A stretch of 64,000 nucleotides of DNA. It comes from a virus (taxonomy: Duplodnaviria; Heunggongvirae; Uroviricota; Caudoviricetes). How positions within the stretch are numbered: position 1 is the first letter of the stretch; every line of letters begins with the position of its first letter. A program made the position numbers and the translations under genes. Below are positions 20,608 to 64,000 of this stretch, piece after piece. The notes beneath the pieces are model-generated. The model ran no database searches and was not told where the DNA came from. It worked only from the letters and a program-made list of their open reading frames with translations. The stretch covers positions 1 to 64,000 of the IMG/VR virus record IMGVR_UViG_3300002835_005179; one strand, given 5' to 3'.

Positions 20608-20611
20608 AAAT

Positions 20612-20854: not shown

Positions 20855-20858
20855 AAAT

Positions 20859-24145: not shown

Positions 24146-24220
24146 GCGCTTGTAGCATAATGGTAATGTAGAAGATTCTAAACCTTCGAGATGAGAGTTC
24201 GATTCTCTCCAAGCGCACCA
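24146..24220 (+). tRNA. tRNA with anticodon CUA (amber suppressor type), CCA encoded
   Basis: - Acceptor stem GCGCTTG/CAAGCGC.
- D arm GCAT-AATGGTA-ATGT.
- Anticodon stem GAAGA/CCTTC with one A-C mismatch, loop TT-CTA-AA.
- Variable region GAGAT.
- T arm GAGAG-TTCGATT-CTCTC.
- Discriminator A followed by CCA. Confidence 0.8.
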
Positions 24221-30287: not shown

Positions 30288-30676
30288 TGATTCTAAATTT
30301 AACAAAAGACAATATTAAATTATATGCAGCCAGTGTTTACCAAAATCCTGGCTGCGCTTCGTCTTTAGAATTTGAAGAGGATTATCTTCGAATCAAATAT
30401 CTGAAGACGATTTTATATAAATATCTAAATAACAAGAGTATAAATATTCGTATTTTGTTAAATCATATTATTTGTATACAGAATGTTTTTCCTGGAGAAG
30501 CAACTGCTAAGATCTTATTCGTTGTGTTTTCTGAATCTTCGTGGAATGCATTAGCAACAATCTTGATCTATTTGTCTTTGATGCCTCCAGAAATTAGAGG
30601 AATAACGGGAAAAACGATTACTCTATCATCAATATCTATAGACAATAATCTATTAGAAAAATTAAAGGAACTATGA
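30287..30676 (+). CDS. Hypothetical protein (129 aa)
   Basis: Track ORF, joined to its neighbours by a TAATG junction upstream and an ATGA overlap downstream. Confidence 0.45.
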   Translation: MILNLTKDNIKLYAASVYQNPGCASSLEFEEDYLRIKYLKTILYKYLNNKSINIRILLNHIICIQNVFPGEATAKILFVVFSESSWNALATILIYLSLMPPEIRGITGKTITLSSISIDNNLLEKLKEL

Positions 30677-31966: not shown

Positions 31967-33286
31967 ATGAAATCCTTCAAACAATTTCTTATTGAAAACG
32001 AATTATCTATTGGTAAATGGGAAATTATTGCCTCAACTGAAAGAAGAAGAAAGTATGCTGAAAATCTATTCGATCTAGTTCAAACAGCATATAAGGACAC
32101 ACCATATGGTTCATTTATTAAAACTGTAGATAATGTAATTAATGGTATTAAGAATGAAACAGATCCAACAAAACCACCGACAATTTCAGATTGGCAAGTA
32201 ATTAATCTAGACTCAGATCCATATGCAGAAGCCACAGTATTCTATAGAAAAAATAGATCAGATGAAACTTGGATTGGAAATAAGATACAAGGTATAGGAC
32301 ATGATGGAAGATATCATAATAGAATTAAATCATCTCAGTATGCTGTAGAAAAGATTGTTGAATTGATTAATGAAGAGGGTTGGTGGATAGAAGTTTCAGA
32401 TGCGTTGAAATACATTTTATTTAAAAGATATAATGGAAAATTTCCTGTTGTTTCTGATGTTGTGTTTTTGAGAAAATTATATAATGATCCAACTCTTGAA
32501 ATGATTGATGAAGTTACATACACTAGAGATATTGGTAGTGGAAGAATCCAGGAATCTACCCTGGGAAAACCTGTTCTTAAGATGAAAGAAGAATCTCTAG
32601 ATGAAGGTCTTTCGGATTGGTTGAGGAATATTGTGCTCGCTGCTGGTCTATTCGCTTCGGGGGAGCAGGGTGCAGAAGCAAAAAGAATAACAGTTTATCC
32701 TGATGGTAAGGCAATTTATACTGATACAGGAAAACCAGTAATCAATAAATTACCCAAACTACAATCTACAAAGAATATATTATTAAATGTCAAAGCAGAT
32801 ACTCCTGATGAAAGAAAGAAACTTTTGAATAAGATGGCGATTGCTTCTGGAATAAAAGGAAACGAGTTAGAACATTTTATTGCACAAGCTAGTCATGAAA
32901 CATTAGATTTCTCGAAGCTTGAAGAAATTGGTTCTAATAATAAATTTGAATTAAAATATGGTCCGAATTCTAGAATAGGAAAAAAATTAGGTAACGATAC
33001 CAAAGGTGATGGGGCGAAATTCAAAGGACGTGGTTTCTTACAATTAACAGGTAAGTATAATTATGAGAAGATTGGTAAGATATTAAATCTAGATCTTGTT
33101 TCTAATCCTAATATGATTTCTAAGTATCCTGGTGTTGCAGCTGCTACTGCTATTGCTTATTGGAAATGGAGAGTTAAACCTAATGTTAAATCTTTCGCAA
33201 CAAAAGATACAGTTTCGAAAGTTACTAAGCAAATCTCCGGATCTAGTAAAGAAAAACATATAGATAGAAGAAAACCAAAAAAGTAG
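31967..33286 (+). CDS. Glycoside hydrolase family 19 (lysozyme/chitinase-like) protein with capsid-targeting-like N-terminus
   Basis: N-terminus MKSFKQFLIENE. C-terminal AQASHETLDF..GDGAKFKGRGFLQLTGKYNY..AYWKW matches the GH19 catalytic core. Ends in TAG. Confidence 0.7.
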   Translation: MKSFKQFLIENELSIGKWEIIASTERRRKYAENLFDLVQTAYKDTPYGSFIKTVDNVINGIKNETDPTKPPTISDWQVINLDSDPYAEATVFYRKNRSDETWIGNKIQGIGHDGRYHNRIKSSQYAVEKIVELINEEGWWIEVSDALKYILFKRYNGKFPVVSDVVFLRKLYNDPTLEMIDEVTYTRDIGSGRIQESTLGKPVLKMKEESLDEGLSDWLRNIVLAAGLFASGEQGAEAKRITVYPDGKAIYTDTGKPVINKLPKLQSTKNILLNVKADTPDERKKLLNKMAIASGIKGNELEHFIAQASHETLDFSKLEEIGSNNKFELKYGPNSRIGKKLGNDTKGDGAKFKGRGFLQLTGKYNYEKIGKILNLDLVSNPNMISKYPGVAAATAIAYWKWRVKPNVKSFATKDTVSKVTKQISGSSKEKHIDRRKPKK

Positions 33287-43208: not shown

Positions 43209-44012
43209 AATACGAGAAAGACGATTATTTTTTCTAGTTTCTACCATTTGAGATTTTTGTTTCAAACTAATAATTCGTCCTGGAATAAGTAAATGATTTG
43301 TATCGTCGATATGTTCTAGATCCTTTACTTTAATAAATATATTTTTTGTCCCATCATTATACCACTTCCCTCCCTTATTATTTTTCTTATTTTTATTTTC
43401 TATCAAAGAGGCGGACCGTTTTTTCTTCGTTTCTTCAGATTGTTTTTTATTAAAAGAAGGATTTTTAGAACCCAATTTAGATTCAGACATATTTTTTTTC
43501 TGTTTATCGGTTCTTTTTTGTCCGACGACATATGTATTGCCCAATTTAGATAAACCCATTTTCTTACGGTGAATTTCAGATTTTCTTTTACCTAGTAGTG
43601 CAGCAGATATTTCGGCTTTGGTTTCTGGAGTGTGGTTCTTTCCATACCTAGGAGACTTTTCTCCAGTTTTTCCATACATAGGAGACTTTTCTCCAGACCT
43701 TTTGTCTAGTGCTTCCGGAGTGTATTTATAACCAGACACCCCTTCCCCGCCATCGGTCTTATTTCTCAGGATTCCTGTTCCTAGATCTTTTCGACCATAA
43801 AACTGTATTAGTCTTATTTCTTCGTCGAAGGCTTCTGATTCTGACAGATTTTCGAAGAGAATAGATATTCTAGAAGATTCAACAGGACGAAATCGTCTCT
43901 TACACCAGGCTCTGTTACCCTGACCTTTTCCAATATAATATGGAGTCCCATCTTCTCTTAGAAAAGCATAGACATAGAATCTGGCTGGGTCTTTATAAAT
44001 AGTTTTAGACAT
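43191..44012 (-). CDS. Free-standing GIY-YIG homing endonuclease with NUMOD3-type repeats
   Basis: FYVYAFLREDGTPYYIGKGQGNRAW, followed by GEKSPMYGKTGEKSPRYGKNHTPETK. Start set at MSKTIY (44012), preceded by GGAGG. Confidence 0.8.
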   Translation of the reverse strand: MSKTIYKDPARFYVYAFLREDGTPYYIGKGQGNRAWCKRRFRPVESSRISILFENLSESEAFDEEIRLIQFYGRKDLGTGILRNKTDGGEGVSGYKYTPEALDKRSGEKSPMYGKTGEKSPRYGKNHTPETKAEISAALLGKRKSEIHRKKMGLSKLGNTYVVGQKRTDKQKKNMSESKLGSKNPSFNKKQSEETKKKRSASLIENKNKKNNKGGKWYNDGTKNIFIKVKDLEHIDDTNHLLIPGRIISLKQKSQMVETRKNNRLSRISDNKV

Positions 44013-44077
44013 ATAAGCTACCTCCCAAGTAGTTTGTGTGTTCAGATGGGAGAAAGCGAACACTTTCTCCCCATAAT

Positions 44078-44147: not shown

Positions 44148-44212
44148 TCCTCACCGTACTTGCGAATTGTATGAAAGTTCTAATTGGTATAAGTTTAAGA
44201 AATTCATTCGCT

Positions 44213-44239
44213 TAGAAAAATAAAGGGGCCGCTGGCCCC
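44213..44239 (-). terminator. Rho-independent terminator
   Basis: Minus strand reads GGGGCC-agc-GGCCCC followed by TTTATTTTT. The TAG stop of ORF 44239 abuts the stem. Confidence 0.65.
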
Positions 44240-45051
44240 TATTTCTTTATTTGTAATAACATTTTCTGAAGTGCGTTAAATAGATTCTTCTCATTAGAGA
44301 ATTGTTCATAATTCATCATTAATTCTAAATCGTTATCTAACTTGGAATTAGTATTTGTCATAATCAATAAAGACTCATATTCTTCATATCCTTCCGTGTC
44401 AACATAAACAGATTCGACGGATTCAACTCCATCTGGAGTCATAAACACTGCAGACAATTCATCAGGATTTTCTGGAATAGAAGTAAGTTTATCTGACAAA
44501 GAAATAGATTCTATAAAATCATCTTTTGTTCTTTGTAACTCTTTGGATACAAATAATCTGACGCCAAGTATTGCCCAAATCTTGATTCCTTCTCTTCCAT
44601 ATAAATTCTTCCACATCTTTCTTGCACCAGCAGATTGAGTATCTAATGCTGCAAGATTGATTCCCCTCTTTATCAATCCCATATATGTTGTAGGCATAAT
44701 TCCTTTTCCAATATATTCTGTTTTCAAATATGAATTGATGATCTCATAAAAATCATATCCGTACCGATTATATATTGGTCTCTTGTATAGATGCAACATA
44801 CCAATACATCTTGGGGTCTTGTTGACCATAACCCAATTAGTTATGTATGTTACTGGCCCCTTTGTAAAATATCTGACTTCTATAATAATATCATCTTTTG
44901 TTTTAAACAAAAGAGGCTTATCAAATTCACTATATATTGTTGCATATTCTTGTGAACTTGGAAAATCTCGTGTTGATTTAGCGAAATCTTTCGTGATTGA
45001 AAGATTTCGCTGTAATTCTACTATATGATTAGAAAATTCTTTAAATAACAT
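44239..45051 (-). CDS. Hypothetical protein (270 aa), weak GNAT-like motif
   Basis: EYIGKGIM..SAGARKMWKNL resembles GNAT motif A. The gene is bracketed by the gp41 3'-end duplication. Ends in TAG. Confidence 0.45.
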   Translation of the reverse strand: MLFKEFSNHIVELQRNLSITKDFAKSTRDFPSSQEYATIYSEFDKPLLFKTKDDIIIEVRYFTKGPVTYITNWVMVNKTPRCIGMLHLYKRPIYNRYGYDFYEIINSYLKTEYIGKGIMPTTYMGLIKRGINLAALDTQSAGARKMWKNLYGREGIKIWAILGVRLFVSKELQRTKDDFIESISLSDKLTSIPENPDELSAVFMTPDGVESVESVYVDTEGYEEYESLLIMTNTNSKLDNDLELMMNYEQFSNEKNLFNALQKMLLQIKK

Positions 45052-45062
45052 ACATATATTTA

Positions 45063-46463
45063 TTAGAATTTGAAATTATCGAAGTTCTTCTTATATTTCG
45101 AAGAACCATATCCTGAATCAAATTCACCATAATTATTATCCTGATAAGGATCTTGAATACCACCTTCTCCATCAATCTGAATATCACCGATATCAAATAA
45201 TCTCATCTTAGATCTATCAATACCAACCAAGAATTTCTTATTCTTAGTCACATCATTATATCTATTCTTCAACTGTTTAATCATCAACTGACCAAGTTTT
45301 TCTAATTCTTCTGTATTAATTAGAGCAATCATGAAATCGCAAGTGGCGGCGACGCCGAAACTTTCTGCAATATCACCCATACCAGCATCAGAATCAGACG
45401 CTCCAGATCTCGTAAATTGTGATGCGGATACGATCGGAAGATTAGCTTCTACAGCAAGACCACGAACTTCTTCAGCAATAGACTTAACCAACATATAAGA
45501 ATTTACTTGACCGTTATTCTTAATTCTTGAAGAAGCACAAATATTCAAATAATCAATATAGATAATATCTGGAATAAACTTCTTCTTTAGAGCAAGTTCA
45601 TGTAGAAGATATCTGAAGTGTGATACGTTGGCTGAACCAGTTGGATATTCCTTGATAACCAACTTGCCTGGTGTTCGACTTTCTAACTTATTAATTAGTG
45701 ATAAGAATTGTTTCTTAGAAATTTGTTTTAGAGTATCTAAGGTAATATCCAATAGATTCGCATCAATTCTCTCGGCGATTCTTTCTTCAGCCATTTCACA
45801 TGTAATATACAAAACATTCTTACCATCAAGAACATTAGAAGCTGCCATATGACACATCGCCAAAGTTTTTCCAGCATTAACACCACCAAGAATTAAGTTT
45901 AGCGTTTTTCTCGGAAGTCCTCCACCAGTAATAAGATTTAAATTCTGGATATCAAAACGAATTCTCTCTTCTTTCTTATGATAAAATTCAAATCTTGTTT
46001 CTGCATCAGAAACAAAATCATGACCAACTGATGGATCGAATGTAATTGCAAGAGCTTCTTTAAGAATTTCAGGAATAGAACCTTTATCTCTAGTATCTTT
46101 TTCATCAGATATAATCTTAATAGAATCTAAGATTGCATTATGCAATGATTTTTCTTTACAAAATGATTCAGTCTGTTTGATCAAGAATTTTAAATCAGTT
46201 TGCTCATTCTTCGACCAAGAATCTAATAGATTAGATATTACTTCTGAGTCTTCAATTTTAATCTTCTTAGATTCAGAAGTCATAATCTTAATAGCTTCTA
46301 CGGAAGCTTGTTTATTATATTCTGTGACAAACGAATTAATGAATTTAAATATACTTCTATCATTATGATCCGAAAAATATTCAGACTTTAGAAAGGGTAA
46401 TACTGATCTAGTATATTCTTCGTTATGTAAGAGATTCTTTAAAACCAAATGTTCAATTTTCAT
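45063..46463 (-). CDS. gp41: Replicative DNA helicase (gp41, DnaB-like)
   Basis: Walker A GGVNAGKTLAM and DnaB-type blocks. Start set at MKIEHL (46463), preceded by AGGAGAA. The longer track ORF reads into the degenerate repeat. Confidence 0.9.
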   Translation of the reverse strand: MKIEHLVLKNLLHNEEYTRSVLPFLKSEYFSDHNDRSIFKFINSFVTEYNKQASVEAIKIMTSESKKIKIEDSEVISNLLDSWSKNEQTDLKFLIKQTESFCKEKSLHNAILDSIKIISDEKDTRDKGSIPEILKEALAITFDPSVGHDFVSDAETRFEFYHKKEERIRFDIQNLNLITGGGLPRKTLNLILGGVNAGKTLAMCHMAASNVLDGKNVLYITCEMAEERIAERIDANLLDITLDTLKQISKKQFLSLINKLESRTPGKLVIKEYPTGSANVSHFRYLLHELALKKKFIPDIIYIDYLNICASSRIKNNGQVNSYMLVKSIAEEVRGLAVEANLPIVSASQFTRSGASDSDAGMGDIAESFGVAATCDFMIALINTEELEKLGQLMIKQLKNRYNDVTKNKKFLVGIDRSKMRLFDIGDIQIDGEGGIQDPYQDNNYGEFDSGYGSSKYKKNFDNFKF

Positions 46464-46674
46464 AATTAGTTTTCTCCTGTGATAACGACCAAGAATTAGA
46501 GTCTGAACCTGAGCCTGAAGAAGATAAATTTGCAGACCAAGATTCTGATTTGGGTATCTCTCCGGACCAAGACCAGGATCCCGATCTGCGTGAATTTCCA
46601 ATTCCACTCCATGATCCAGAAAATAAACGAGTCCAATATATATATTCTGATTTCTTTCTTAATTTGTGAATCAT
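46453..46674 (-). CDS. Diverged Ser/Gly/Trp-rich small protein (73 aa), member of the Ser-Xaa family
   Basis: Basic leader MIHKLRKKSEYIYW followed by SGSWSGIGNSRRSGSWSWSG.., using mixed Ser codons (tct, tca, agt, tcg, tcc). It has an ATGA overlap with the upstream gene and an 11-nt overlap with the gp41 start. Confidence 0.55.
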   Translation of the reverse strand: MIHKLRKKSEYIYWTRLFSGSWSGIGNSRRSGSWSWSGEIPKSESWSANLSSSGSGSDSNSWSLSQEKTNYEN

Positions 46675-46865
46675 AAATTGGATGTCCCGGATTTAGAACC
46701 ATATCGATATCTACTGTCGGTAATCCATGATAGATAATGATTAGATTGGCCAGACTTAGAAGATAAGAAGATACTCGAAGAGGTTCCGCATCTATGGAGA
46801 CCGGAGAAGAACCTCTTCTTGGAATTAAATCTCAATCTAATAGATTTTCTTTTTGTTGTTAACAT
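46671..46865 (-). CDS. Diverged Ser/Gly-rich small protein (64 aa), member of the Ser-Xaa family
   Basis: Basic leader MLTTKRKSIRLRFNSKKRFF followed by an S/G-rich tail with mixed Ser codons. Confidence 0.5.
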   Translation of the reverse strand: MLTTKRKSIRLRFNSKKRFFSGLHRCGTSSSIFLSSKSGQSNHYLSWITDSRYRYGSKSGTSNL

Positions 46866-46896
46866 ATTTCCATTTATCTTGAATAATCTAGAATAA

Positions 46897-47064
46897 TTAA
46901 TTTCCAGACCTAGACCAAGACCTAGACCTAGACCTAGACCAAGACTCAGACCTAGACTCAGACCTAGACCAAGACCCAGACCTAGACCTAGACCTAGACC
47001 AAGACCAAGACCAAGACCCAGACCTAGACCAAATAATTCTTTTGTAAATTGATTTCTTTATCAT
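46897..47064 (-). CDS. Ser-Xaa dipeptide-repeat small protein (55 aa)
   Basis: MIKKSIYKRIIW leader plus a (TCTNGG)n repeat, ending SGN-TAA. Confidence 0.5.
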   Translation of the reverse strand: MIKKSIYKRIIWSRSGSWSWSWSRSRSRSGSWSRSESRSESWSRSRSRSWSRSGN

Positions 47065-47068
47065 ATTT

Positions 47069-47275
47069 TTAGTTAGACCTAGACCCAGACCTAGACCTAG
47101 ACCAAGACTCAGACCTAGACCCAGACCAAGACCAAGACCCAGACCCAGACCAAGACCTAGACCTAGACCCAGACCAAGACCCAGACCCAGACCCAGACCC
47201 AGACCAAGACCAAGACCCAGACTCAGACCTAGACCTAGACCCAATATTTTTTTTGTAAATTGATTTCTTTATCAT
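47069..47275 (-). CDS. Ser-Xaa dipeptide-repeat small protein (68 aa)
   Basis: MIKKSIYKKNIG leader plus the repeat, ending RSN-TAA 4 nt before the next ATG. Confidence 0.5.
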   Translation of the reverse strand: MIKKSIYKKNIGSRSRSESGSWSWSGSGSGSGSWSGSRSRSWSGSGSWSWSGSRSESWSRSRSGSRSN

Positions 47276-47289
47276 ATTACAATTATAAC

Positions 47290-47628
47290 TTATTTTGTAA
47301 TATTAGTCAACTGGGAATCATTTGCATGCAAAATAGCATATTCTAATATCTTCTTAATTAATTTCTTGACAATTTGAATCAGAGTTTTATCATTACTGGA
47401 TACATTATTGGGAGAGTACACAACTGTCATATCAAACGTCAATATAGAAGAATCTTCTTCTTCACAAGTTATATCTGTTATTTCTATAATAGTTTCTTTA
47501 TGTTTTCCTTCATCTAATCTCAATAATATCTTTTCGTTATTGTTGTGTTCTGTAATAAAGAACGATGCTTTCATATCTGAAAATGGTACTATCTTATATG
47601 ATTCTTCTTTTTGTTTAGTATTTTTCAT
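47290..47628 (-). CDS. Hypothetical acidic protein (112 aa)
   Basis: Track ORF lying between UvsX and the repeat genes. Confidence 0.45.
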   Translation of the reverse strand: MKNTKQKEESYKIVPFSDMKASFFITEHNNNEKILLRLDEGKHKETIIEITDITCEEEDSSILTFDMTVVYSPNNVSSNDKTLIQIVKKLIKKILEYAILHANDSQLTNITK

Positions 47629-47652
47629 TTATATCTCCAAAAGAAAGAGGAC

Positions 47653-48693
47653 TTAGTCCTCTTCTGCATATTCTTCCGTTGTTTCATCTTCTACAATCTT
47701 ATTAGATAACTTAAATTTATAGATAACATAATCTTGAAAAGTTTTATCTTGCATAATAGATTCCCAAAAATCTTCAGTATTTGTGGCATCTAATCGATAA
47801 TTCTTATCTTCTCCTACTTTTTGGTACCATCCATTTTTTGGCTTGATTACATGTCCCGATTCCAAAGCGAGATCCATCAATCCAGAATATTTACTAATTC
47901 CGTCATTGAATTTAACTTGAAATGTTAATTTACTCTTCTCTTTTACGAATCTAGATTTCTCAATGTTGATAGTAAAATTATAACCCACTAGATCGGTACC
48001 ATCTTTTTCTTGTGTGCGTGTTACAATAAAAATCTGATTTGCAGAATATGTCACTGATGTACCACCACCAACGACGGCTTTAGAGTAGAGCTCCATTGTA
48101 GCATAAACGTGATTTATTACAAGACAAGGAATATCTTTCATAGTAAGATGGGGAGTAATGATTCTCAACAATGATCGAATCGATTTTGCTCTGGTCATAT
48201 CTGCAACTGATTTTTCATCAACAGCATCATCTACTTCTTTCTTAGAAGAAAGCGATCCTAATGAATCAATCATGACGAATACTTTATCACCACGTTGTAT
48301 TTCATTCAATCGTTTGACTATATCAAATTTAAGTTGTTCGATATGTTCGATTGGAATATGAATGATTCTAGAAGCGTCGATTCCATACATCTCAAGATAT
48401 TCTGGTGTAATACCAAACTCAGAATCATAGAGAAGTGCTACGGAATCTTCATACTTATCAAAGTAAGCCTTCATACAATAAAGAGAAAGAAGTGTCTTGT
48501 ATGACTTTGATTGTCCGGCAACTACAGTTAAACCTGGAACTAGACCACCATTCAGATCTCCAGAAAATGCAATATTTAAGATAGGAAGTTCGGTGCTAAT
48601 GCAATCTTTAATATTGAAGAACGATGATTCGGATAAGATCTCTGCGTTTTTTACAGATCCTGCTTTTTGTAATTTGTCTAATAGTTTACTCAT
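47653..48693 (-). CDS. uvsX: Recombinase UvsX (RecA-like)
   Basis: Walker A-like VAGQSKSYKT (compare T4 GPSKSFKS) and a RecA-fold block VFVMIDSLGSL. Confidence 0.9.
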   Translation of the reverse strand: MSKLLDKLQKAGSVKNAEILSESSFFNIKDCISTELPILNIAFSGDLNGGLVPGLTVVAGQSKSYKTLLSLYCMKAYFDKYEDSVALLYDSEFGITPEYLEMYGIDASRIIHIPIEHIEQLKFDIVKRLNEIQRGDKVFVMIDSLGSLSSKKEVDDAVDEKSVADMTRAKSIRSLLRIITPHLTMKDIPCLVINHVYATMELYSKAVVGGGTSVTYSANQIFIVTRTQEKDGTDLVGYNFTINIEKSRFVKEKSKLTFQVKFNDGISKYSGLMDLALESGHVIKPKNGWYQKVGEDKNYRLDATNTEDFWESIMQDKTFQDYVIYKFKLSNKIVEDETTEEYAEED

Positions 48694-48739
48694 TTGTTTC
48701 CTTTTGCTGTTTGATACAGGAGCTACCTGTGTTTAATAT

Positions 48740-51253
48740 TTAGTCGAAAAACGAATCAAGAGTTGATTTGTTTTCTAATGACCAAGAAATTGCATCTAAA
48801 ATAGTAGAAATAGGTTCTATAAAAGTCTTTTGAAATTGTAAATTGTAATCTATAAATTCATGTAATTTAAGTTCCGGAGGAAGAATTGAATTGAAAGAAA
48901 TTATATTCTCTCGAATCATATTCGGTTCTTTAAGATACAAGAATTTAATCTTTTCTCCTTCGTGGATCTCAGTATACTTCTTTAGAAGATCATTCTTTTT
49001 CAAGAGATTGTTGTAAACAAGTGAACCTCTTACATGTATTGGAGTTCCTTTTGTATAGATAGAAATATTAGATGAATATGTTTTTAGATTATTAACACCT
49101 CTGGGAAATGCAATATCTTCTGGAGAAAGCGAAAGAAATTCTTTTTTTACATTATCAATATATTCACGCAAATCAGACTCATTCGATTTCATGATAATTT
49201 TAATTGCTTCTTTAATTTTACCACGACAAAATTTTGGAGTTGAAGATTTAACAGCTTCAATACCCATGATTTTCATTTTTGGTTCTGAATATCTTACTCC
49301 TTCTGAATCATAAACATTTAACATATATCTTTTCTTTGCCGTCCAAATACCACGATCGGCGATCGATTCTCTCTTCATAATCATTTTCTGTGAGTATGAA
49401 TTTAGATAATCAGCTAGATCTTCATAAGAATCATTAATTATTTTCTGAAGTTGTTCTTTGCATATTTTATCTAGAAGATCAACTGTCTGTTCGTTAGTCT
49501 TATTGGGAAAGAATTTGTTTACTAGATCTTGAAGATCTAAATATGCCGAGTCCGTATCTATTGCGATAACATAATCTTTATTCGTTTTTAATATATTTCT
49601 TAGATATCCATTCAATCTATTAGAAACCCAACGAATAGCCAATTGGCCAGATACAGTAATTGATTCTGCAATTCTCTTATCTGAGAATCTAAAATATCTA
49701 TTGGCAATTGCACCATAAGCTGAATTCAATGCAATCTTCTTAGCCATCTGCAGATTCTTATACTTTGAGATATCATTCAGAATTTGCTTAGTATCTTCAC
49801 CAGTCTTATTTGCGGATTCTAAATCTTTTTCCGCTTGAATCATTTTTGACTTATAAATCTTACGTTGTTCGAACATCCAGGACATGAGCTGTGTCAAAAA
49901 TCCATCCTTATCTCTACGATACAATTGTCCTGTCGCAGACATTGAGAAATTATTTTTCTTTAAATCTGATAGATCTATCTCCTTAGATAACAATTTATCT
50001 ACAGAAATACCAGGAATAATCTTATCTATAATTGTGTCCGGAGAAAAATTCCCGCCCATAATAAGATGAGGGTACAGCGATTGTAAATCGAAAGAAACTA
50101 CCCAATTATAGAATCCAGGTCTGGGTTCTTTTACATAAGCTCCTTCAATTTCTTCTTTAATTGATTCTTGTCTTTCAGGAATAACATAACCTCTTGAAAG
50201 TAGATGATTGTAAATAATAACATCCCACATTCTAATTTGAGAGAATACGTCATCGAAATTGACTTTTGCGTCATAAGCCATAGTCATAGCCAACTCGATT
50301 AATTTCATCTTATTTTCAAGAGAAACAACTAAATCCACATCTTTCGCATTGTATTCGAGAAATTTATTATAATCTTCTTTATAAAGAAGGTGAAGAGAAC
50401 CATACTCAGAATAATCTAATTTATTTTCACCAAGTTCAACAGAAGCAATATAATCTAATTTATAAGATTCCTGAGCAGAGTAAGTGAATTTCTTATAGAG
50501 ATCTAGATAATCAAGAACAGAGATACCGAACATATCATATGTCTGGACTTTCTTACCCATAATTTCAATAGTCTCTTCACGTAAGATTTTCCATGGCGAA
50601 AGATTCTTTGCCTTGGCTTCACCAAATACACGTGTAATTCTATTGATTAGATAGGGAATATCGAAGAATTTAACGTGCCATCCCGAAACAACATCAGGAT
50701 AATTCGATTTCCAAACCTTCAAGAATTTCTCTAGTAATATCTCTTCAGATTCACAAGGAAGATATATCGCATCGGTCAAATTTCCTGTGAAATGATCAAA
50801 TCCCAATACAATCTTTTTCTCTAGATTAGAAAATTTAATTGTAATGGCATTAATTTCTTCAATGGCATTTGAAATAGAAGGAAATCCATTCTCACAAGTA
50901 CATTCGATATCTATATATGCAACCACAATATCTTCGGTTTTCCATTGTATATCACTGTTAGTGTTTTGTGATATCCATTGATATTGTGGTTGTATATTAC
51001 CATATACTGAGAAATTACCAACATCCTTATTGCGTGCGATAAATTCTCTTGTTTCTTTTACATTCCCAGCATCAAATTCAATAACAGGATATTCATCTAA
51101 GTTCTTAAATTCCGATACTGTATTTGGTGAAGAGGCAGGAATCCAGATTCTAGGATGAAAATCATTTATCCTATCTTGTTCTCGCTTCCTGTCCTCAACA
51201 TAACGAACATATAAAGTATTTCCCCAAGATTGAACATTAGTATAATATTTCAT
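48740..51253 (-). CDS. gp43: Family B DNA polymerase (gp43)
   Basis: Exo I YIDIECTC, SLYPHLIMG, KIALNSAYGA and AIDTDSAYL. Confidence 0.9.
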   Translation of the reverse strand: MKYYTNVQSWGNTLYVRYVEDRKREQDRINDFHPRIWIPASSPNTVSEFKNLDEYPVIEFDAGNVKETREFIARNKDVGNFSVYGNIQPQYQWISQNTNSDIQWKTEDIVVAYIDIECTCENGFPSISNAIEEINAITIKFSNLEKKIVLGFDHFTGNLTDAIYLPCESEEILLEKFLKVWKSNYPDVVSGWHVKFFDIPYLINRITRVFGEAKAKNLSPWKILREETIEIMGKKVQTYDMFGISVLDYLDLYKKFTYSAQESYKLDYIASVELGENKLDYSEYGSLHLLYKEDYNKFLEYNAKDVDLVVSLENKMKLIELAMTMAYDAKVNFDDVFSQIRMWDVIIYNHLLSRGYVIPERQESIKEEIEGAYVKEPRPGFYNWVVSFDLQSLYPHLIMGGNFSPDTIIDKIIPGISVDKLLSKEIDLSDLKKNNFSMSATGQLYRRDKDGFLTQLMSWMFEQRKIYKSKMIQAEKDLESANKTGEDTKQILNDISKYKNLQMAKKIALNSAYGAIANRYFRFSDKRIAESITVSGQLAIRWVSNRLNGYLRNILKTNKDYVIAIDTDSAYLDLQDLVNKFFPNKTNEQTVDLLDKICKEQLQKIINDSYEDLADYLNSYSQKMIMKRESIADRGIWTAKKRYMLNVYDSEGVRYSEPKMKIMGIEAVKSSTPKFCRGKIKEAIKIIMKSNESDLREYIDNVKKEFLSLSPEDIAFPRGVNNLKTYSSNISIYTKGTPIHVRGSLVYNNLLKKNDLLKKYTEIHEGEKIKFLYLKEPNMIRENIISFNSILPPELKLHEFIDYNLQFQKTFIEPISTILDAISWSLENKSTLDSFFD

Positions 51254-51285
51254 ATTACTAATTATACTATATTATTTGTTATTTG

Positions 51286-51918
51286 TCAAGTAATTTGTAT
51301 CTTAGATGAGAAGTCATTTACTTTTGCAAGCAGAGACGCACCATATCCGGAATCTAGATTAAGTCCTCTGCCACCAATTACTTGTGTTACTGCTCTATCT
51401 GCATCGGCTTGATTTGTGAATTGTATTTTTCCAGATAATCCAACCAATACAAATTTAACAGAAATAATTGCAGAAATATTTCTATCAGTTACCAACAGAT
51501 CTGGATCTTGGATAATATTGAATCCACATAGATCACCATACGTTTTATAATTTGATCTACCAGTTAATTGGATGTATCCTCTCCCACGATAAGTCCAACC
51601 ATCTCCTGGATTAACATTACCCATTCCCCTACCAATAACATTGGTATTTCCATAAATCAATTCAGCAAATTCTTGTGGATTGCATTTTATTCTTGACAAT
51701 TCTGAATCTGACAATCGATAAACCCTAGAACCAAATATAGATTTGATTCTAGAATTATCTGTTTTACAATAATTTAGATTTTCTTCTTTTGGGATTAAAC
51801 CACACTCTTTATATGCATTGGATATTATCGCTTTTTTTAAAAAATCACATTTAATACCGCAAGCTACACATGCATCTAATATTGGTTGTATAAGTTGTTT
51901 ATCCATATCTATGTCCAA
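51286..51918 (-). CDS. GH19-like lysozyme (endolysin candidate)
   Basis: GDGWTYRGRGYIQLTGRSNYKTYG matches the GH19 core. Confidence 0.65.
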   Translation of the reverse strand: MDIDMDKQLIQPILDACVACGIKCDFLKKAIISNAYKECGLIPKEENLNYCKTDNSRIKSIFGSRVYRLSDSELSRIKCNPQEFAELIYGNTNVIGRGMGNVNPGDGWTYRGRGYIQLTGRSNYKTYGDLCGFNIIQDPDLLVTDRNISAIISVKFVLVGLSGKIQFTNQADADRAVTQVIGGRGLNLDSGYGASLLAKVNDFSSKIQIT

Positions 51919-52559
51919 AGAAATCGTCTAATCTTAATAAGACGAATTAACATTTGTTCGTCTTCTTTATCATATTTAGCTTCAATCTTTGTGATTGTTT
52001 TAAACACTTGTCTTTCTTGTTTGGTTGACCGTTTTAAAGTATAATATGTTTCTCCATCACGTTGGACTTCAACAAGATCATCTCTGAGAGTTTTGCCTTT
52101 AAATACTTCATAATAATTAGCTTCAACATATGGATCTGGTCTATTTGGTCGTGTTTCTTTCCACCAAGTATAAAGATCTAGAACTTCTTTTGCTGCTTTA
52201 GCTTGATGCACTAATTCAGTTTGATTAATCTTCCAATTCAAATATTCGATACCATCTTCTGGAGAACGAAATCTTCGAAATTTCTTGTCGAACCAAGATA
52301 ATTTTGAATACTTAGATCTATCAGTCCATGTATTCATCCATGCTTTTTCGATCTCAACGAAATCAACAAGAAGATTAAAATTAACATGTAACATACGAGT
52401 GTCGGTGTCATAATAACCTGGCTCCAACCCAGTATTTACGATATGATATCTTCTACATGTTCTGAAACGAACCCAATCCAATACCAGAATATACTTATCT
52501 TTAAGCATATAAAGAATATCTTCAATCTGTTCTTTCCAATAGTTTTTGTATTTCATCAT
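51909..52559 (-). CDS. Hypothetical protein (216 aa)
   Basis: Track ORF. Confidence 0.45.
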   Translation of the reverse strand: MMKYKNYWKEQIEDILYMLKDKYILVLDWVRFRTCRRYHIVNTGLEPGYYDTDTRMLHVNFNLLVDFVEIEKAWMNTWTDRSKYSKLSWFDKKFRRFRSPEDGIEYLNWKINQTELVHQAKAAKEVLDLYTWWKETRPNRPDPYVEANYYEVFKGKTLRDDLVEVQRDGETYYTLKRSTKQERQVFKTITKIEAKYDKEDEQMLIRLIKIRRFLWT

Positions 52560-52607
52560 GAATTCCTTCTTGTGGTTTTTAGTGAATGTATTCTATAACC
52601 ACTAAAA

Positions 52608-55600
52608 TTAAAAATTTAGTCTTAGACTTAACTGTAGTTGTCTTGAAGTTCCTAGACCAACAGTTTTATCAAGTGTTGATTGTATCGTTCCAAATACAGC
52701 TCCCTTTGTTACATCATTGTAAGATTGACCGGGTTGTAGTGTATTAGACTGACCAATTCTGGATGGAATTGCATTTGGTAATTGTGCTGGAGGATTTGTA
52801 AAATTTACATTATTAAAGATGTTATATAATTCTGTTCTGAAAATTAAATTGTATTTGTCTTTAGCATAAATCTTTTTCTGAAGAGTTAGATCTGCTTGGA
52901 AAAGCATTGGACCTCTCAACGAGTATCTAGAAGCGTTTCCAAAATATCCAGGCAACGGAACTGAGAAAGCAGCAGGATTCAAGAAAATTGTTTTATCAGT
53001 ATTTTTGATATATGACGAAACTCCTAATACATAATCAGGTCTGCGGATTTGTCTTGTTTGTCCACCACCAGGAACATTAATAACAGCTACAGAATTAGAC
53101 CCTACAGAACTATTATAGTACAATCCAGATGATTTGTCAAGAAAGATTATGTCGTTTCTTACGATTAATGGATCAAGAGGAAGACCTGATCTGGTATTGA
53201 TAACAGAACCAATCTGCCACGTTTTCCATTCATACAATCCAACAATATTTAAATTGTGACGAATATCCGCTGCATTATTACCATAATCGGTTCTCCAATT
53301 GAAAGGATTTGCAACAGTTACAGTTTCATTTGAACCACCAGATGAACCGATTGATCTTCCCCATGTATATGATACACCATAAATTAGGCCGCTCTTCGTT
53401 TTTCTGTTTAGAGTTGCCTGTAAAGCATTATAATGATCATTACCACCTGATGTTTTTACATCAACTTCAGCAAATCTATCACCAAATTGTCTCTTTACAG
53501 TTCCAGTAGGAGTTACATCTGTGATTAGATTTCCAAGTGTTCTAATGAACAAATTTCTACCAAGAGAACCAACATACGCAACAGTTAAAACATTATCTTT
53601 AATTTGTTGTTGAACTGATGCTGTATATGAATAAACAGTTTCCGGAATATTATAACCCGAAGAATAAGCTCTTGGTTGAAAACGAAGATTTGGGTCATTG
53701 ATATTGTAAGAAGCAATAATAGAAGTTGGATTAATCGGATAAGTTGTATTAGTTAGAGTCTTACTAACACGATCAGATTCAAATGGTTGGATAAGATCTT
53801 CTGGTTGTCCTGGTCCAAAATAAACACCAGTTCCTACACGAAATACAGTCTTACCATTTAGAGAATTTGGACTCCATGTTCCAGATAATCTTGGCGAAAA
53901 ATTATCTTTATTTGAACGATAGACAGGAAGATTATTTGGTAAAATGTTTCCTGTTTCTGGTGACCAATTAACTAATAGATTTCTCTTTTCCTTGAAAACT
54001 GAATAGAATTCATATCTAATTCCATAATTAACAGTAAAGTTAGAAGATGCTTTCCATTCATCTTGTATATAACCAATTAAATAATTCTGAGTAATTTCTC
54101 TTTCTCCAGTTGCTCTATTATTAAATGGAGAAGGTGCAGAAAGATCACCCAAGAATTGTATTTGAAGTGGTCGATTATTAATTAGATCTTCTACGTTTGA
54201 GAAACTATAAGTTGTTCCACCAAGACGATCTGTAAATAAACGGATAAATCTTAATTCTCCACCAAACTTAAAATTATGAGAAGAATTAATCCATGAAAAA
54301 TTATCAATCAAAGTAATTGAAGTATTAGTATAAGGTTGTCCACGACCATTTGTAGCAGAATTTGATCTTACTAGACCACCAGCAGTAGCAAATCCTGTGC
54401 TTGAACCTTGTGTTGTAATACCAGATAAAGCAACGCCACCAGTTAGATTAATTGAAATATCTGCTGGATTAAAGTTATTTACAATTGGTGCAGTTCCCCA
54501 TGCTCTTGTTTTATAAGCATTTAATCCAATCTTGGTTTCATTAATCTTCTGTGGTGTGATAATCCATTGAACATTTGCTACAGCATTTTGTGGAACCGCA
54601 GTAACATCAATAGAATTTCCAGTAACACCTAGTGGTTGAATTGACTTACCACTATCTCTGAAGTAACGGAAATATCCAGAAAGATTATCTGAAATTTTTG
54701 AATCTAATCTTAGACCAAACGAATTTTCATCTACAGTCTGTTTTCTATCAATAGCAACAATAGAAGCATTCGGATCTGTTGTTGGAATATTTCCAACTGG
54801 ATAAAGTGCTAGAAGATTTCTAACTTGTGGAACTGCTCTTGCTTTTGCTGTTTCTGATGGAACAGCTTCTCTAAACGGAACCGATTGTCTCTGTCTTAGA
54901 CCTTCATATGATGCAAACCAAAAAGTCTTATCTTGCTTTACTGGACCACCAACAGAGCCACCAAATTGATTTAGACGTAAAGGATTCTTAGCAGCATCAA
55001 AGAAATTTCTAGAATCTAATACATTATTTCTAAGATATTCAAAAACACCACCATGAATCTTATTACCACCAGACTTAGTTACAATTGTGATTTGACCACC
55101 AGTTCCTGTACCATATTCTGCTGGATAATTATTAGATTCAACACGAAATTCTTGAACATTTTCCATTGAAGATTGTAATCTAAAGAATGAAGAAATCTGC
55201 CCATTTAGATTACCCGGAGAAGCATCAATAATAGAAGATCCTTCAATTCCATCATATTTAATAGCATTTTGTTGATTAGATCTACCACTAAACTTAATAT
55301 TATCAAATGTACCACCGCCAGCAGTTGAAGCACCAGGAGCTAATAGATATAACTGTGAAATTTGTCTACCATTTAGCGGAAGATTTGAAACTTCTCTTTC
55401 AGAAACATTAACACCAATCTTCGCTGAAGATGTATCGATAGTCGTAACTTCACCACCTTCAACAATAATTTCAGTCTTAATAATTTGAGGTACTAAGATG
55501 AAATTGATACCAATAGATTCATTAACCAATAATTTAATTCCTGTTTTCTGTGTATTTGCAAAACCGGGAGCAGAAGCTTTTACATTATAAGATGAAGCAG

Positions 55601-55793
55601 GTAGATTTGTGATAATGTATTCACCAACTTCATTTGTTACCACTTCTCTTACAGATCCAGTTTTTTCATTCTGAATCTTAACAGTTGCACCAATAATTAC
55701 TTCTTCATTCTTGTCAAAAATCTTTCCTCTAATCGAAGCTTCTTGACAAAATAAGCTAGTCGTTAATAAAAATAAACTTAATAAATATTTCAT
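52608..55793 (-). CDS. TonB-dependent-receptor-like (Oar-type) outer-membrane beta-barrel protein with an N-terminal carboxypeptidase-regulatory-like domain
   Basis: Signal peptide MKYLLSLFLLTTSLFCQEA. CarboxypepD_reg-like segment (IRGKIFD..GATVKI..TNEVGEYIITNLP..Y.V). Plug-like segment (LPLNGRQISQLYLLAPGA..IKFSGRS). Long alternating beta-strand region ending in the OMP signature LSLRLNF. Confidence 0.8.
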   Translation of the reverse strand: MKYLLSLFLLTTSLFCQEASIRGKIFDKNEEVIIGATVKIQNEKTGSVREVVTNEVGEYIITNLPASSYNVKASAPGFANTQKTGIKLLVNESIGINFILVPQIIKTEIIVEGGEVTTIDTSSAKIGVNVSEREVSNLPLNGRQISQLYLLAPGASTAGGGTFDNIKFSGRSNQQNAIKYDGIEGSSIIDASPGNLNGQISSFFRLQSSMENVQEFRVESNNYPAEYGTGTGGQITIVTKSGGNKIHGGVFEYLRNNVLDSRNFFDAAKNPLRLNQFGGSVGGPVKQDKTFWFASYEGLRQRQSVPFREAVPSETAKARAVPQVRNLLALYPVGNIPTTDPNASIVAIDRKQTVDENSFGLRLDSKISDNLSGYFRYFRDSGKSIQPLGVTGNSIDVTAVPQNAVANVQWIITPQKINETKIGLNAYKTRAWGTAPIVNNFNPADISINLTGGVALSGITTQGSSTGFATAGGLVRSNSATNGRGQPYTNTSITLIDNFSWINSSHNFKFGGELRFIRLFTDRLGGTTYSFSNVEDLINNRPLQIQFLGDLSAPSPFNNRATGEREITQNYLIGYIQDEWKASSNFTVNYGIRYEFYSVFKEKRNLLVNWSPETGNILPNNLPVYRSNKDNFSPRLSGTWSPNSLNGKTVFRVGTGVYFGPGQPEDLIQPFESDRVSKTLTNTTYPINPTSIIASYNINDPNLRFQPRAYSSGYNIPETVYSYTASVQQQIKDNVLTVAYVGSLGRNLFIRTLGNLITDVTPTGTVKRQFGDRFAEVDVKTSGGNDHYNALQATLNRKTKSGLIYGVSYTWGRSIGSSGGSNETVTVANPFNWRTDYGNNAADIRHNLNIVGLYEWKTWQIGSVINTRSGLPLDPLIVRNDIIFLDKSSGLYYNSSVGSNSVAVINVPGGGQTRQIRRPDYVLGVSSYIKNTDKTIFLNPAAFSVPLPGYFGNASRYSLRGPMLFQADLTLQKKIYAKDKYNLIFRTELYNIFNNVNFTNPPAQLPNAIPSRIGQSNTLQPGQSYNDVTKGAVFGTIQSTLDKTVGLGTSRQLQLSLRLNF

Positions 55794-55841
55794 ACATTCC
55801 TTTATTACTATTTGGTTACTTTTCTTTCATTTAAAACACGT

Positions 55842-55863
55842 GAACGGCAATTAATTGCCGTTC
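55842..55863 (-). terminator. Perfect 22-nt palindromic hairpin (terminator/attenuator candidate)
   Basis: GAACGGCAATT|AATTGCCGTTC lies between the thioredoxin and OMP genes. T-rich sequence follows on the plus strand and GTTTT follows on the minus strand. Confidence 0.45.
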
Positions 55864-55909
55864 ATTTTATTTATGTAATTCGTACAACATCTGATATTTC
55901 TAACATCAT

Positions 55910-56176
55910 CTAAGACAACTCATCAATTACATCTTGAATATATTTCTTAGTCTTAGAACCAACAAATCTGAAGATCTCTTCGTTACGATGATTCACGAAT
56001 ACCACTGTTGGTAGTGATTTAATCTTATATTCGATAGCAGCATTCCCATCTTCTTCAGAATCTACATCCTTCACAACAAATTCATGACTAGGATTCGATA
56101 CCTTCAATTCTTCTATGATTGGCTCTAGAGCCACACAAGCGGAACACCATTCTGCCCCAAATTTAATTATTTGCAT
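55910..56176 (-). CDS. trx: Thioredoxin
   Basis: Active site WCSAC and a thioredoxin-length ORF (88 aa). Confidence 0.8.
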   Translation of the reverse strand: MQIIKFGAEWCSACVALEPIIEELKVSNPSHEFVVKDVDSEEDGNAAIEYKIKSLPTVVFVNHRNEEIFRFVGSKTKKYIQDVIDELS

Positions 56177-56213: not shown

Positions 56214-56642
56214 TTATAATTCTTTGATATTGAATTTCTTCGGCTTCTTCGATTCAGGAAGAACCAATTCAAGATCAATACTCAACATACCATTTTTATA
56301 ATCAACATCTGTTACTTCGACATATTCACCTAGAGTGAATGATCTAATAAATTCTCTTTCAGCAATTCCCTTATGAACATAAGTCACACCTTCAGGAAGA
56401 GGCTTTGGTTCTGCCTTTCCTTTAACGTGCAATTGATTGTCTTCTACTGTTACTTCCAAATCTTCTGGCGCAAATCCAGCTACAGCAAAAGTGATATTGA
56501 ACTTAGAATCTTCACTCTTTGTTAGATTGTATGGAGGATAAGTGCCTGATTGTTTGGCTTGTTCATTCCAGAAAGAAGTCACGTTATCATAATTGAATAG
56601 TGGAAAAGATAGTGGATCTAATGTAATGCGTCTGTAAGTCAT
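56214..56642 (-). CDS. Small heat-shock protein (Hsp20/IbpA-like)
   Basis: PPYNL..FNITFAVAGFAPEDLEVTVEDNQLHVKG..ERSF pattern of the alpha-crystallin domain. Confidence 0.85.
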   Translation of the reverse strand: MTYRRITLDPLSFPLFNYDNVTSFWNEQAKQSGTYPPYNLTKSEDSKFNITFAVAGFAPEDLEVTVEDNQLHVKGKAEPKPLPEGVTYVHKGIAEREFIRSFTLGEYVEVTDVDYKNGMLSIDLELVLPESKKPKKFNIKEL

Positions 56643-63627: not shown

Positions 63628-63876
63628 TTAAACTTGAGTTAGAAATAATGAGTCCTCATTATCTTTAATGAATTTCAGGACATCAAATAAAGTGTTCAAA
63701 ATTTTATGATCATACGAATATTTCGAAGGGGACTTGGGATCAACATAACGGTGTTCAAAGGAACAATTGTTAGCATCGTACGATCCAATATACTCGTCGG
63801 TCTTGATGTCATAAAAATCCAACCAAGAACCAGTCAACGAAGGACCGATTTTAATTTTAGAAGTAGCGACGATCAT
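63628..63876 (-). CDS. Hypothetical protein (82 aa)
   Basis: Track ORF. The ATG lies exactly 6 nt after the TATAAT of cassette copy C. Confidence 0.45.
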   Translation of the reverse strand: MIVATSKIKIGPSLTGSWLDFYDIKTDEYIGSYDANNCSFEHRYVDPKSPSKYSYDHKILNTLFDVLKFIKDNEDSLFLTQV

Positions 63877-64000
63877 ACAACCATTATACCTGATCCAAAA
63901 CCGAGGAGCAAGTTTTTTTGAAAGAATATCTCATTTAAAATCAATGACTTGCTGCAAGTGATTGAAAACAAATAGAATATTCTTTCACACAATCTTCAAG
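63877..64000 (-). promoter_or_regulatory. Conserved promoter cassette, copy C (minus orientation, runs off the window)
   Basis: Minus strand reads GAATATTC..TTTTCAATCACTTGCAGCAAGTCATTGA..GAGATATTCTTTCAAAAAAACTTGCTC-N17-TATAAT-ggttgt-ATG. Confidence 0.65.

Follow-up and report, generated by a model that had tools for sequence, protein, structure and literature searches.

The window analysed here, a 64,000-nt stretch of viral DNA (positions 1 to 64,000 of IMG/VR record IMGVR_UViG_3300002835_005179), encodes on its minus strand a 1061-aa homologue of the Oar-type TonB-dependent transporters (TBDTs). The gene is accessory cargo of a freshwater T4-type myovirus; it belongs to a phage clade of acidobacterial, Bryobacterales-like origin and has resided in phages under purifying selection. 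We propose, with about even confidence, that it acts as a functional auxiliary gene for nutrient uptake, most likely linked to phosphorus. A phosphorus-type substrate is the one we favour because the bacterial orthologues behave as Pho-regulon genes.

In the proposed course of events, an ancestor of the pelagimyophage-like T4-type phages would have taken the gene from a Bryobacterales-like acidobacterium and two phage lineages would have retained it. We infer that, during infection of an acidobacterial host, the precursor would be exported by Sec, inserted in the host outer membrane by the beta-barrel assembly machinery (BAM) through its C-terminal beta-signal, and energised by the host TonB-ExbBD through its TonB box. 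Import of the substrate of the bacterial orthologues, probably a phosphorus-containing or phosphate-scavenging compound, could then be sustained or raised while host gene expression is shut down. Phosphorus is the element that most limits phage DNA synthesis in many lakes, and in P-poor fresh water the phage would gain a supply of it for making DNA. The original prediction, made from the DNA sequence without database searches, had listed several functions for the gene; of these, remodelling of host nutrient uptake is best supported by our comparisons, which narrow it to a transporter probably derived from a Pho regulon.

Architecture of the transporter

The open reading frame (ORF) is unbroken from the ATG at 55793 to the TAA at 52608-52610 on the minus strand. 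The following features were assigned to it, with structural calls taken from the model described below and its confidence given as the predicted local distance difference test (pLDDT).

52608-55793, minus strand: coding sequence of the Oar-type TBDT homologue, 1061 aa (ORF list, Pfam and homologues)
55743-55793, minus strand: predicted signal peptide, about residues 1-17 (MKYLLSLFLLTTSLFCQ), from alignment with homologue N-termini and a helix in the model
55491-55742, minus strand: CarboxypepD_reg/transthyretin-like beta-sandwich, the N-terminal extension, residues 18-101
55434-55490, minus strand: flexible linker with the TonB-box-like segment KTEIIVEGG, residues 102-120 (low pLDDT and alignment)
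55059-55433, minus strand: plug domain, residues 121-245
52611-55058, minus strand: 22-stranded beta-barrel with the beta-signal ..LSLRLNF (DSSP of the model)

The Oar-type architecture originally proposed, comprising a signal peptide, a CarboxypepD_reg-like domain, a plug, a large barrel and the terminus of an outer-membrane protein, was borne out by Pfam, the model and the alignment. A Pfam scan matched PF25183 OMP_b-brl_4, the Oar-type barrel model centred on Myxococcus Oar, with E=6.8e-129 and 432.1 bits (cutoff 30), PF13620 CarboxypepD_reg at residues 20-100 with E=4.5e-18 and 65.8 bits (cutoff 32.3), and PF13715 with 37.4 bits (cutoff 32.2). The PF25183 score above the gathering score, the PF13620/PF13715 N-terminal extension and the length of 1061 aa place the protein in the Oar subclass. 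The classical barrel model PF00593 reached 1e-3 only, and PF07715 Plug gave no match at E<=1. An adjacent SusD-like lipoprotein gene and matches to SusC-type signature models, which mark the SusC/RagA type, were not found, and PHROGs, NCBIfam and cultured-phage databases returned nothing useful on the protein itself.

The plug was recovered at the level of predicted structure, if not by hidden Markov models. An AlphaFold (AF2) model built on an alignment of 121 homologues reached a pLDDT of 81.2 and a predicted template modelling score (pTM) of 0.77, and replaced a single-sequence model that was discarded at pLDDT 27. It shows both plug and barrel. The signal peptide contains a helix (residues 2-12), residues 18-100 form a beta-sandwich, 103-118 are disordered (pLDDT <50) and 121-245 make up a mixed alpha/beta plug; DSSP then assigns 22 long strands between which short periplasmic turns alternate with long external loops (L4 434-486, L7 660-716, L10 869-962 and L11 990-1050). 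On superposition with BtuB, 514 of 549 BtuB residues aligned at 2.5 A, and the best structural matches of the model were FusA and YddB, which import proteins, with siderophore receptors next. The call of plug and barrel rests on the model, because searching solved structures (PDB) with the profile of the family brought up no TBDT at thresholds as loose as E<=10.

Both ends of the protein are conserved over the 121 homologues, the N-terminus reading MK, YLLSLFLLTTSLF, CQ and the C-terminus ..LSLRLNF. The signal-peptide region has one basic residue and a hydrophobic stretch, its counterparts in phage and bacterial homologues end in (A/S/C)Q, and we read the two ends as a probable Sec signal peptide and a C-terminal beta-signal closing on an aromatic residue. 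The plug (residues 121-245) is the most conserved region, being 81% identical to the bacterial consensus, and the beta-strand-like TonB-box-like segment reads TE(I/V)(I/V)V(E/D)GG in every phage copy and (Q/T)E(V/I)xVSGG in bacteria. Given the predicted signal peptide, TonB box, plug and beta-signal, a structural role in the virion, as had also been suggested, is very unlikely.

The succession of signal peptide, CarboxypepD_reg, TonB-box-like segment, plug and oversized 22-strand barrel is that of the Oar subclass, which includes Myxococcus xanthus Oar and is abundant in Acidobacteriota (PMC6434023); the protein shares with this subclass a length some 300-400 aa beyond that of classical TBDTs. 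It differs in being encoded by a T4-like phage at a guanine-cytosine (GC) content of 34% and in its distant relationship to Oar, with uncharacterised Bryobacterales proteins of 50-62% identity as close relatives.

Origin, selection and distribution among phages

The phage clade is of acidobacterial, Bryobacterales-like origin. Searches with the transporter returned 4690 homologues at E<=1e-10, among which identity fell in steps from the phage copies (68-97%) to a small bacterial clade (about 60-62%) and to all others (50-57%). In a neighbour-joining tree the phage copies were monophyletic and sister to the bacterial clade of about 60% identity, which includes a protein from a Bryobacteraceae metagenome-assembled genome that lies in an ordinary chromosomal context with 64% GC. 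The best 80 matches in 185,579 species genomes belonged almost all to Bryobacterales, Solibacteraceae, Paludibaculum or Terriglobia. Culturable bacteria are represented by Paludibaculum fermentans and 'Solibacter usitatus', whose homologues are 50-51% identical.

Residence in phages and purifying selection are also shown. The GC content of the gene follows that of its phage in three lineages (0.336 for the gene and 0.342 for the window, 0.315 and 0.32, 0.495 and 0.44), compared with 0.64 in the bacterial homologue; the gene has the GC content of the phage itself, and therefore the capture is old. The ratio of non-synonymous to synonymous substitution rates (dN/dS) was 0.11 between the window copy and the 97% copy, which differ by 103 synonymous and 41 non-synonymous changes, and 0.17-0.18 between the window copy and the 77% copy. 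All phage copies are intact and full length. Of 312 positions with at least 95% conservation in bacteria, they retain 292-301 (94-96%). The phage-like base composition from which a long residence had been read at the outset is hence confirmed, with monophyly and dN/dS in agreement.

The transporter gene is accessory and not part of the core genome. It was originally placed between lysozyme/DNA polymerase genes and thioredoxin/Hsp20 genes on the same strand, which is correct, with a 216-aa ORF (p216) also intervening before the GH19 gene:

48740-51253, minus strand: DNA polymerase
51286-51918, minus strand: GH19 endolysin-like gene
51909-52559, minus strand: p216, between the transporter and the GH19 gene
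52537-55905, minus strand: accessory segment, missing from phages that share the backbone trx, about 200 bp, p216, GH19, pol (tblastn and blastn)
55910-56176, minus strand: thioredoxin (trx)
56214-56642, minus strand: Hsp20

Four polymerase-anchored IMG/VR loci (L095, L096, L100 and L101), with polymerases 70-84% identical, lack the transporter and gave no tblastn match to it. Their gene order is dcd, GMP reductase, p131, hsp20, trx, about 200 bp, p216, GH19, pol and uvsX, and their blastn alignments with the window end at 55906-55920 and restart at 52536. The description of the gene as unusual cargo also proved apt: relatives of the transporter were present on 6 of 2.9 million IMG/VR contigs, PHROGs hold no family for it, 50,697 phage records yielded one weak match, and the single full-length structural match in BFVD was the 'SusC' of a marine megaphage (5e-27).

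The phage copies fall into two groups. Group 1, the type of the window, has copies at 97% and 77% protein identity that occupy the same site on other contigs. Group 2 consists of copies 68-72% identical on contigs with a GC content of 0.44-0.50, one of them 206 kb long, and occupies a conserved but different site downstream of DHFR, ThyA and a T4-type RNA ligase. The group-2 transporter gene is often preceded by that of a DUF5658 protein or of a small CarboxypepD_reg-only protein. The latter, of 115-125 aa with a hydrophobic N-terminus (L001 9306-9683, L177/L178 8886-9233 and L179 2729-3076), is 23% identical to the N-terminal extension of the window transporter (E=6e-4); the window has no homologue of this group-2 protein.

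One further contig, L093, matches the window at 99% identity for 8.4 kb (44158-52580) until colinearity breaks 28 nt past the transporter stop codon; repeats of about 66 nt adjoin the p216 start where the window has the transporter, followed by sequence equal to window 40985-42883. Either mobile regulatory cassettes have rearranged the region or the dispersed repeats have led to a chimeric assembly, and L093 was set aside as evidence for a relative without the transporter. It indicates that assemblies of this region can be unstable, a point in favour of the gene being a bacterial contaminant or the product of chimeric assembly and so not a phage gene. That explanation, and equally that of a decaying passenger without function, is effectively refuted: many independent contigs, drawn from various samples and sources, show the gene in the same phage context, the GC content is phage-like and 30 points under that of bacterial homologues, and the full length of every copy and the low dN/dS values speak against decay.

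The distribution of sequence change over the protein bears on its function. The ratio of phage-bacteria to bacteria-bacteria identity is 0.88 in external loops compared with 0.84 in strands, and identity among phages is 0.78 in loops compared with 0.76 in strands. The plug and the TonB-box-like segment are conserved and the loops are no more diverged than the strands, which argues that selection has preserved the ancestral gated-transport activity.

TBDTs are common phage receptors, and the pelagimyophage lineage has variable islands tied to host recognition. The phage copy might thus replace, mask or outcompete a host receptor transporter, giving superinfection exclusion, or act as a decoy on debris or vesicles, as had also been put forward; the accessory status of the gene and its place in a variable region would agree with this, and TBDTs are noted as phage receptors in bioRxiv 10.64898/2026.05.02.722434 as well. 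Such a role is disfavoured by the conservation of the external loops and we regard it as improbable. The strongest constraint falls on the plug and the TonB-box-like segment, which a passive decoy would not need, and an additional homologue of a surface receptor would draw phages in rather than exclude them.

An outward-facing role like that of Myxococcus Oar, in which the protein would export a phage or host protein or help to breach the outer membrane at lysis, has to be weighed against the gene neighbourhood. Oar, the sole characterised member of the subclass, acts in secretion in a TonB-box-dependent manner and is needed for secretion of the PopC protease (PMC6434023). The group-1 transporter gene lies two genes from the GH19 endolysin-like gene, and Melnitz/pelagimyophage relatives encode outer-membrane CsgGF pores that have been suggested as lysis regulators (PMC9004378). 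We nevertheless judge this role distinctly improbable. p216, GH19 and the rest of the module are intact in relatives without the transporter and are independent of it, for which reason p216 and GH19 were rejected as partners; in group 2 the GH19 gene is 3.5 kb away on the other strand or missing from the flank, and the Pho-box-like element retained there suits a nutrient response better than lysis. No PopC-like partner was recognised in the transporter flanks. A more specific version, argued by analogy, is a TonB-energised exit route or outer-membrane breaching device that would, for example, release the GH19 muramidase or aid lysis in a host without evident canonical spanins, and we hold it to be very doubtful.

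Pho-type context and the probable substrate

The nature of the substrate was approached through the bacterial orthologues. All ORFs within the 3-kb flanks of 83 bacterial loci were clustered, and three kinds of neighbour recurred, histidine kinases at 15 loci, response regulators at 12 and periplasmic binding proteins at 9. NCBIfam identifies the last of these as PstS (TIGR00975, 364 bits, cutoff 205). The best NCBIfam model for the regulator was PhoB, at 242 bits and below the 296 cutoff, and those for the kinase were PnpS (352 bits) and PhoR (298 bits), both below cutoff. A PhoR/PnpS-like kinase, a PhoB-like regulator or PstS was found at most 3 kb away in 23 of the 83 Bryobacterales loci, including the four best-scoring named genomes, and in two loci the two-component genes were directly linked with pstS. 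No recurrence of Fur-type or glycan-utilisation neighbours was seen among the 83 loci.

Upstream of the bacterial transporter genes we found a triple direct repeat in 11-bp phase, TCTTCAC-N4-nnGTCAT-N4-CTGTAAC, which mostly ends 24-27 nt ahead of the first Met of the ORF. The repeat scored at least 12 bits in 70 of 79 bacterial loci (median 26 bits) and in 0 of 81 in-gene controls, as judged by an iteratively built position weight matrix that was trained on the same upstream regions that it scored; the sister-clade loci also carry it (L174 25.5, L175 29.6 and L005 22.0 bits). The PHO box is made of 11-nt direct-repeat units, CTGTCAT in E. coli (PMC4415409), and the bacterial repeat, with its 11-bp-phased direct repeats and CTGTAAC-type units, has the same architecture. 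The upstream regions of pstS genes were only partly supportive as an independent test of the motif, CTGTAAC-N4-CTGTAAC standing directly upstream of two of the seven pstS genes in bacterial loci (18.5 and 10.9 bits) and the other five being without it. These sequence comparisons lead us, at moderate confidence, to regard the bacterial orthogroup as Pho-regulated.

In group-2 phages (loci L172/L173, L176, L177/L178, L179, L001 and IMG/VR L183-L185) a Pho-box-like match lies 31-67 nt upstream of the transporter. It scores 12-22 bits and is the best match, or in two cases the second-best, in the entire locus on both strands. Five distinct sequence versions are represented, in which the phased (A/T)TGTAA(C/T) heptamers are conserved and the spacers variable.

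Group 1 has another upstream region, for which two features were annotated:

55798-55802, minus strand: Shine-Dalgarno-like AAGGA, 5 nt upstream of the ATG (sequence reading; AAAGG(A/G)AT is kept in L003 and L006)
55841-55864, minus strand: strong hairpin with a 10-bp stem, an A-tract on one side and a T-run on the other (terminator scan on both strands and RNA folding)

Its layout is common to the three group-1 lineages and runs from the stop codon of the upstream gene through an A-tract, the hairpin, a T-run and about 45 nt to AAAGG(A/G)AT and the ATG. By RNA folding, L006 and L003 form a hairpin at the same place with a different stem sequence, and the element, placed between trx and the transporter gene, resembles a terminator that acts in both directions. 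The A-tract of the window hairpin includes CATAAATA (55868-55875), 82 nt upstream of the transporter, which was considered as a T4-type late promoter; NATAAATA precedes the sheath, tube, scaffold and major capsid protein genes by 14-66 nt. This reading was withdrawn because genuine late genes lack a hairpin of this kind. Next to their ribosome-binding site, group-1 copies have a two-unit remnant of 5.2-8.4 bits, which is not significant, the window having 80 sites of at least 5.2 bits.

Elsewhere in the window, the second-best match to the bacterial Pho-box-like matrix (19405-19433, minus strand, 11.3 bits) has four phased heptamers (GTTTGGA/TATTCAT/TTGAAAT/TGGTCAC) and lies about 130 nt upstream of a gene for nicotinamide phosphoribosyltransferase (NAMPT; 17753-19276, minus strand). 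Other phage genes may answer to host PhoB, or the match may be due to chance.

The main rival to a phosphorus-linked role is a nutrient-uptake auxiliary gene for another substrate, such as iron complexes, peptides or proteins, or glycans, the Pho context then reflecting regulation and not substrate. FusA and YddB and then siderophore receptors lead the structural matches, a ferritin gene lies near the transporter in one group-2 locus, and published annotations of phage TBDTs assume carbohydrate or iron uptake (PMC9723777; bioRxiv 10.64898/2026.05.02.722434). Sister-clade loci, moreover, adjoin a secreted aspartyl-protease-like gene in an arrangement reminiscent of TBDT-protease pairs. We consider this alternative unlikely. 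Structural rank among TBDTs at 10-13% identity is weakly informative on substrate, the recurrent neighbours in the 83 loci are phoR/phoB-like genes and pstS and not Fur-type or glycan-utilisation genes, and the upstream repeat is of Pho-box architecture.

The aspartyl-protease-like gene encodes a secreted protein of 316-337 aa with two DTGA motifs (pepsin/retropepsin-like) and lies divergently upstream of some Bryobacterales orthologues (L005 8808-9821 and L174 6863-7813, both minus strand, and also L040, L063 and L069). No NCBIfam model matched the protein. In those genomes it may serve the transporter as a partner protease; the idea of a conserved partner was rejected, the gene being present in about 7 of the 83 bacterial loci and in no phage.

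A phosphorus-linked auxiliary role has precedents. The pstS of cyanophages is under host PhoBR control (PMC10976474), and TBDTs and SusCD-like 'Pus' complexes induced by depletion of inorganic phosphate are known in Flavobacterium (PMC8115612), an instance from elsewhere of Pho responses that include TonB-dependent uptake across the outer membrane. Several points weigh against it, the training of the matrix and the five pstS genes without the motif among them. The kinase and regulator neighbours score under the NCBIfam equivalog cutoffs, and the two best-resolved sister-clade loci adjoin the two-DTGA protease-like gene instead of phoBR. On the phage side, bioinformatic Pho-box calls have been shown to be unreliable (PMC10976474), and a scan of window ORFs turned up no phoH or pstS. 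Upstream of the window copy and of its 97% and 77% relatives (L003 and L006) there is no Pho-box match, the best three-unit score being at most 0.1 bits, and for this reason any phosphate-responsive control has been lost in the lineage of the window; CATAAATA, as part of the terminator-hairpin A-tract, is not a clean late promoter. Lastly, a wide gap separates the GC content of the phage (0.34) from that of Bryobacterales (0.6 or more), and the closest cultured relatives of the phage infect SAR11 and OM43.

The phage, its hosts and wider meaning

The T4-like identity first assigned to the phage is confirmed by its structural and replication genes, namely TerL, tail sheath, portal, scaffold, a gp23-like major capsid protein, rIIA, gp46/47, gp41, UvsX, gp43 polymerase and Pnk. 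At the DNA level no deposited phage comes near the window. The nearest cultured relatives by capsid protein are Pelagibacter phage HTVC008M (62.9%) and the Methylophilales Melnitz phages (61.9%), and we classify the phage from these comparisons as a pelagimyophage-like T4-type myovirus. That the phage is lytic, as it was first called, is an assumption based on its T4-like gene content.

The donor lineage and the retained operator suggest Bryobacterales (Acidobacteriota) as present or former hosts, against which the low GC content and the kinship with SAR11 and OM43 phages have to be set. The gene would be of no use to a cell lacking a Ton system, and the strong purifying selection on it therefore speaks for a host that has TonB. 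A permuted two-piece transfer-messenger RNA (tmRNA) of alphaproteobacterial type is encoded at 37828-38207 on the minus strand (RF01849, 92.9 bits over the full model; RF04321, 99.9 bits), which ARAGORN did not report. Two-piece tmRNA is a lineage trait of Melnitz/pelagimyophage-like phages that survived a switch of host class in Melnitz (PMC9004378), and it was rejected as a host marker on that account. The sole tRNA of the window (24146-24220, plus strand) has the anticodon CUA of an amber suppressor and was labelled tRNA-Pyl by ARAGORN; TAG terminates 10 of the 62 window genes, TerL, trx and p216 included, and is an ordinary stop codon here.

Several other features of the window were recorded. 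A second GH19/lysozyme-like domain forms the C-terminal part of a 439-aa protein (31967-33286, plus strand), possibly a tail-associated lysin. A minus-strand cluster for NAD salvage and nucleotide metabolism (16401-19276) comprises the NAMPT gene and genes for a PRPP-synthetase-like protein (16906-17790) and a nucleoside 2-deoxyribosyltransferase-like protein (16401-17048), with a dCMP deaminase gene at 15941-16360. The N-terminal half of the product of 30673-31584 (plus strand) matches PF23474 anti-CBASS Acb1, a counter-defence nuclease (E=9e-29). Genes on the minus strand for a ClpP-like protease (13324-13938), an SPFH/Band 7 membrane protein (14077-14868) and an AAA/ATP-dependent protease-like protein (36771-37793) may be proteostasis or membrane-remodelling cargo. 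Homing-endonuclease-like genes (three NUMOD3 motifs; phrog_314) lie beside the major capsid gene and within the replication module (12247-13056, plus strand, and 43191-44063, minus strand).

Repeats are of two kinds. Hexanucleotide tandem arrays, (GGTCTR) x about 104 at 20453-21078 (plus strand) and the same repeat on the opposite strand, (AGACCT) x about 56 at 46906-47241, overlap ORFs that would encode (Gly-Leu)n-like low-complexity proteins, and the former is the GC-rich (0.44), strongly GC-skewed block in the composition profile. L093 has an additional copy of about 200 bp inserted near window 47032-47075. Dispersed repeats with units of about 66 nt are found at about 19572-19687, 41009-41245 and 63873-63984 of the window and at 1907-2205 of L093.

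Among known systems, the cyanophage pstS and phoA genes are similar in being host-derived nutrient-uptake components on T4-like phages, and pstS, with its host PhoBR control (PMC10976474), compares further with the Pho-regulon-like bacterial relatives of the transporter and the Pho-box-like element kept in one phage lineage. The window protein differs in being, from its sequence and model, an outer-membrane TonB-type barrel of 1061 aa and not a periplasmic binding protein, and in that its lineage has lost the box. Full-size TBDTs have been annotated in phage genomes and read as auxiliary metabolic genes, namely a SusC in marine megaphage Mar_Mega_1 (PMC9723777) and six TBDTs in phages of ammonia oxidisers (bioRxiv 10.64898/2026.05.02.722434). 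Those are of SusC, siderophore or heme type, the SusC of Mar_Mega_1 being about 11% identical to the window transporter, whereas ours is Oar-type and belongs to a pelagimyophage-like phage of about 145 kb; to the earlier cases ours adds evidence that the clade is conserved among phages, that it is under purifying selection and that it has a link to regulation. The CsgGF curli pore of Melnitz phages and pelagimyophages (PMC9004378) is likewise an outer-membrane beta-barrel assembly in the same broad T4-like lineage (major capsid proteins 62-63% identical), but it is a nonameric secretion pore, unrelated in fold and mechanism to a monomeric, plugged, TonB-gated transporter.

Phage-encoded TonB-dependent receptors and phosphate-acquisition auxiliary genes are thus already known; what is new is the Oar-type subclass and the phage type, the conserved and selected phage clade, its acidobacterial origin, and the Pho-regulon link with one lineage keeping the operator and the other replacing it. 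Phosphate-acquisition genes such as pstS and phoA are the best-known class of phage auxiliary genes. If the proposed role is true, this class reaches from the periplasm to the outer membrane and from marine cyanophages to phages of freshwater heterotrophs. The transporter would also be the first phage TBDT with evolutionary evidence of function, in the form of a clade, selection and a retained cis-element, beyond annotation. For the bacteria, Pho regulation would provide a first functional handle on a large uncharacterised Oar-type orthogroup of Acidobacteriota. We know of no pelagimyophage-like T4 phage cultured for Acidobacteriota, and Bryobacterales would be indicated as present or past hosts of such phages. 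Finally, the two phage lineages would constitute a natural experiment in the rewiring of a captured host gene, one having kept the host operator and the other having replaced it.

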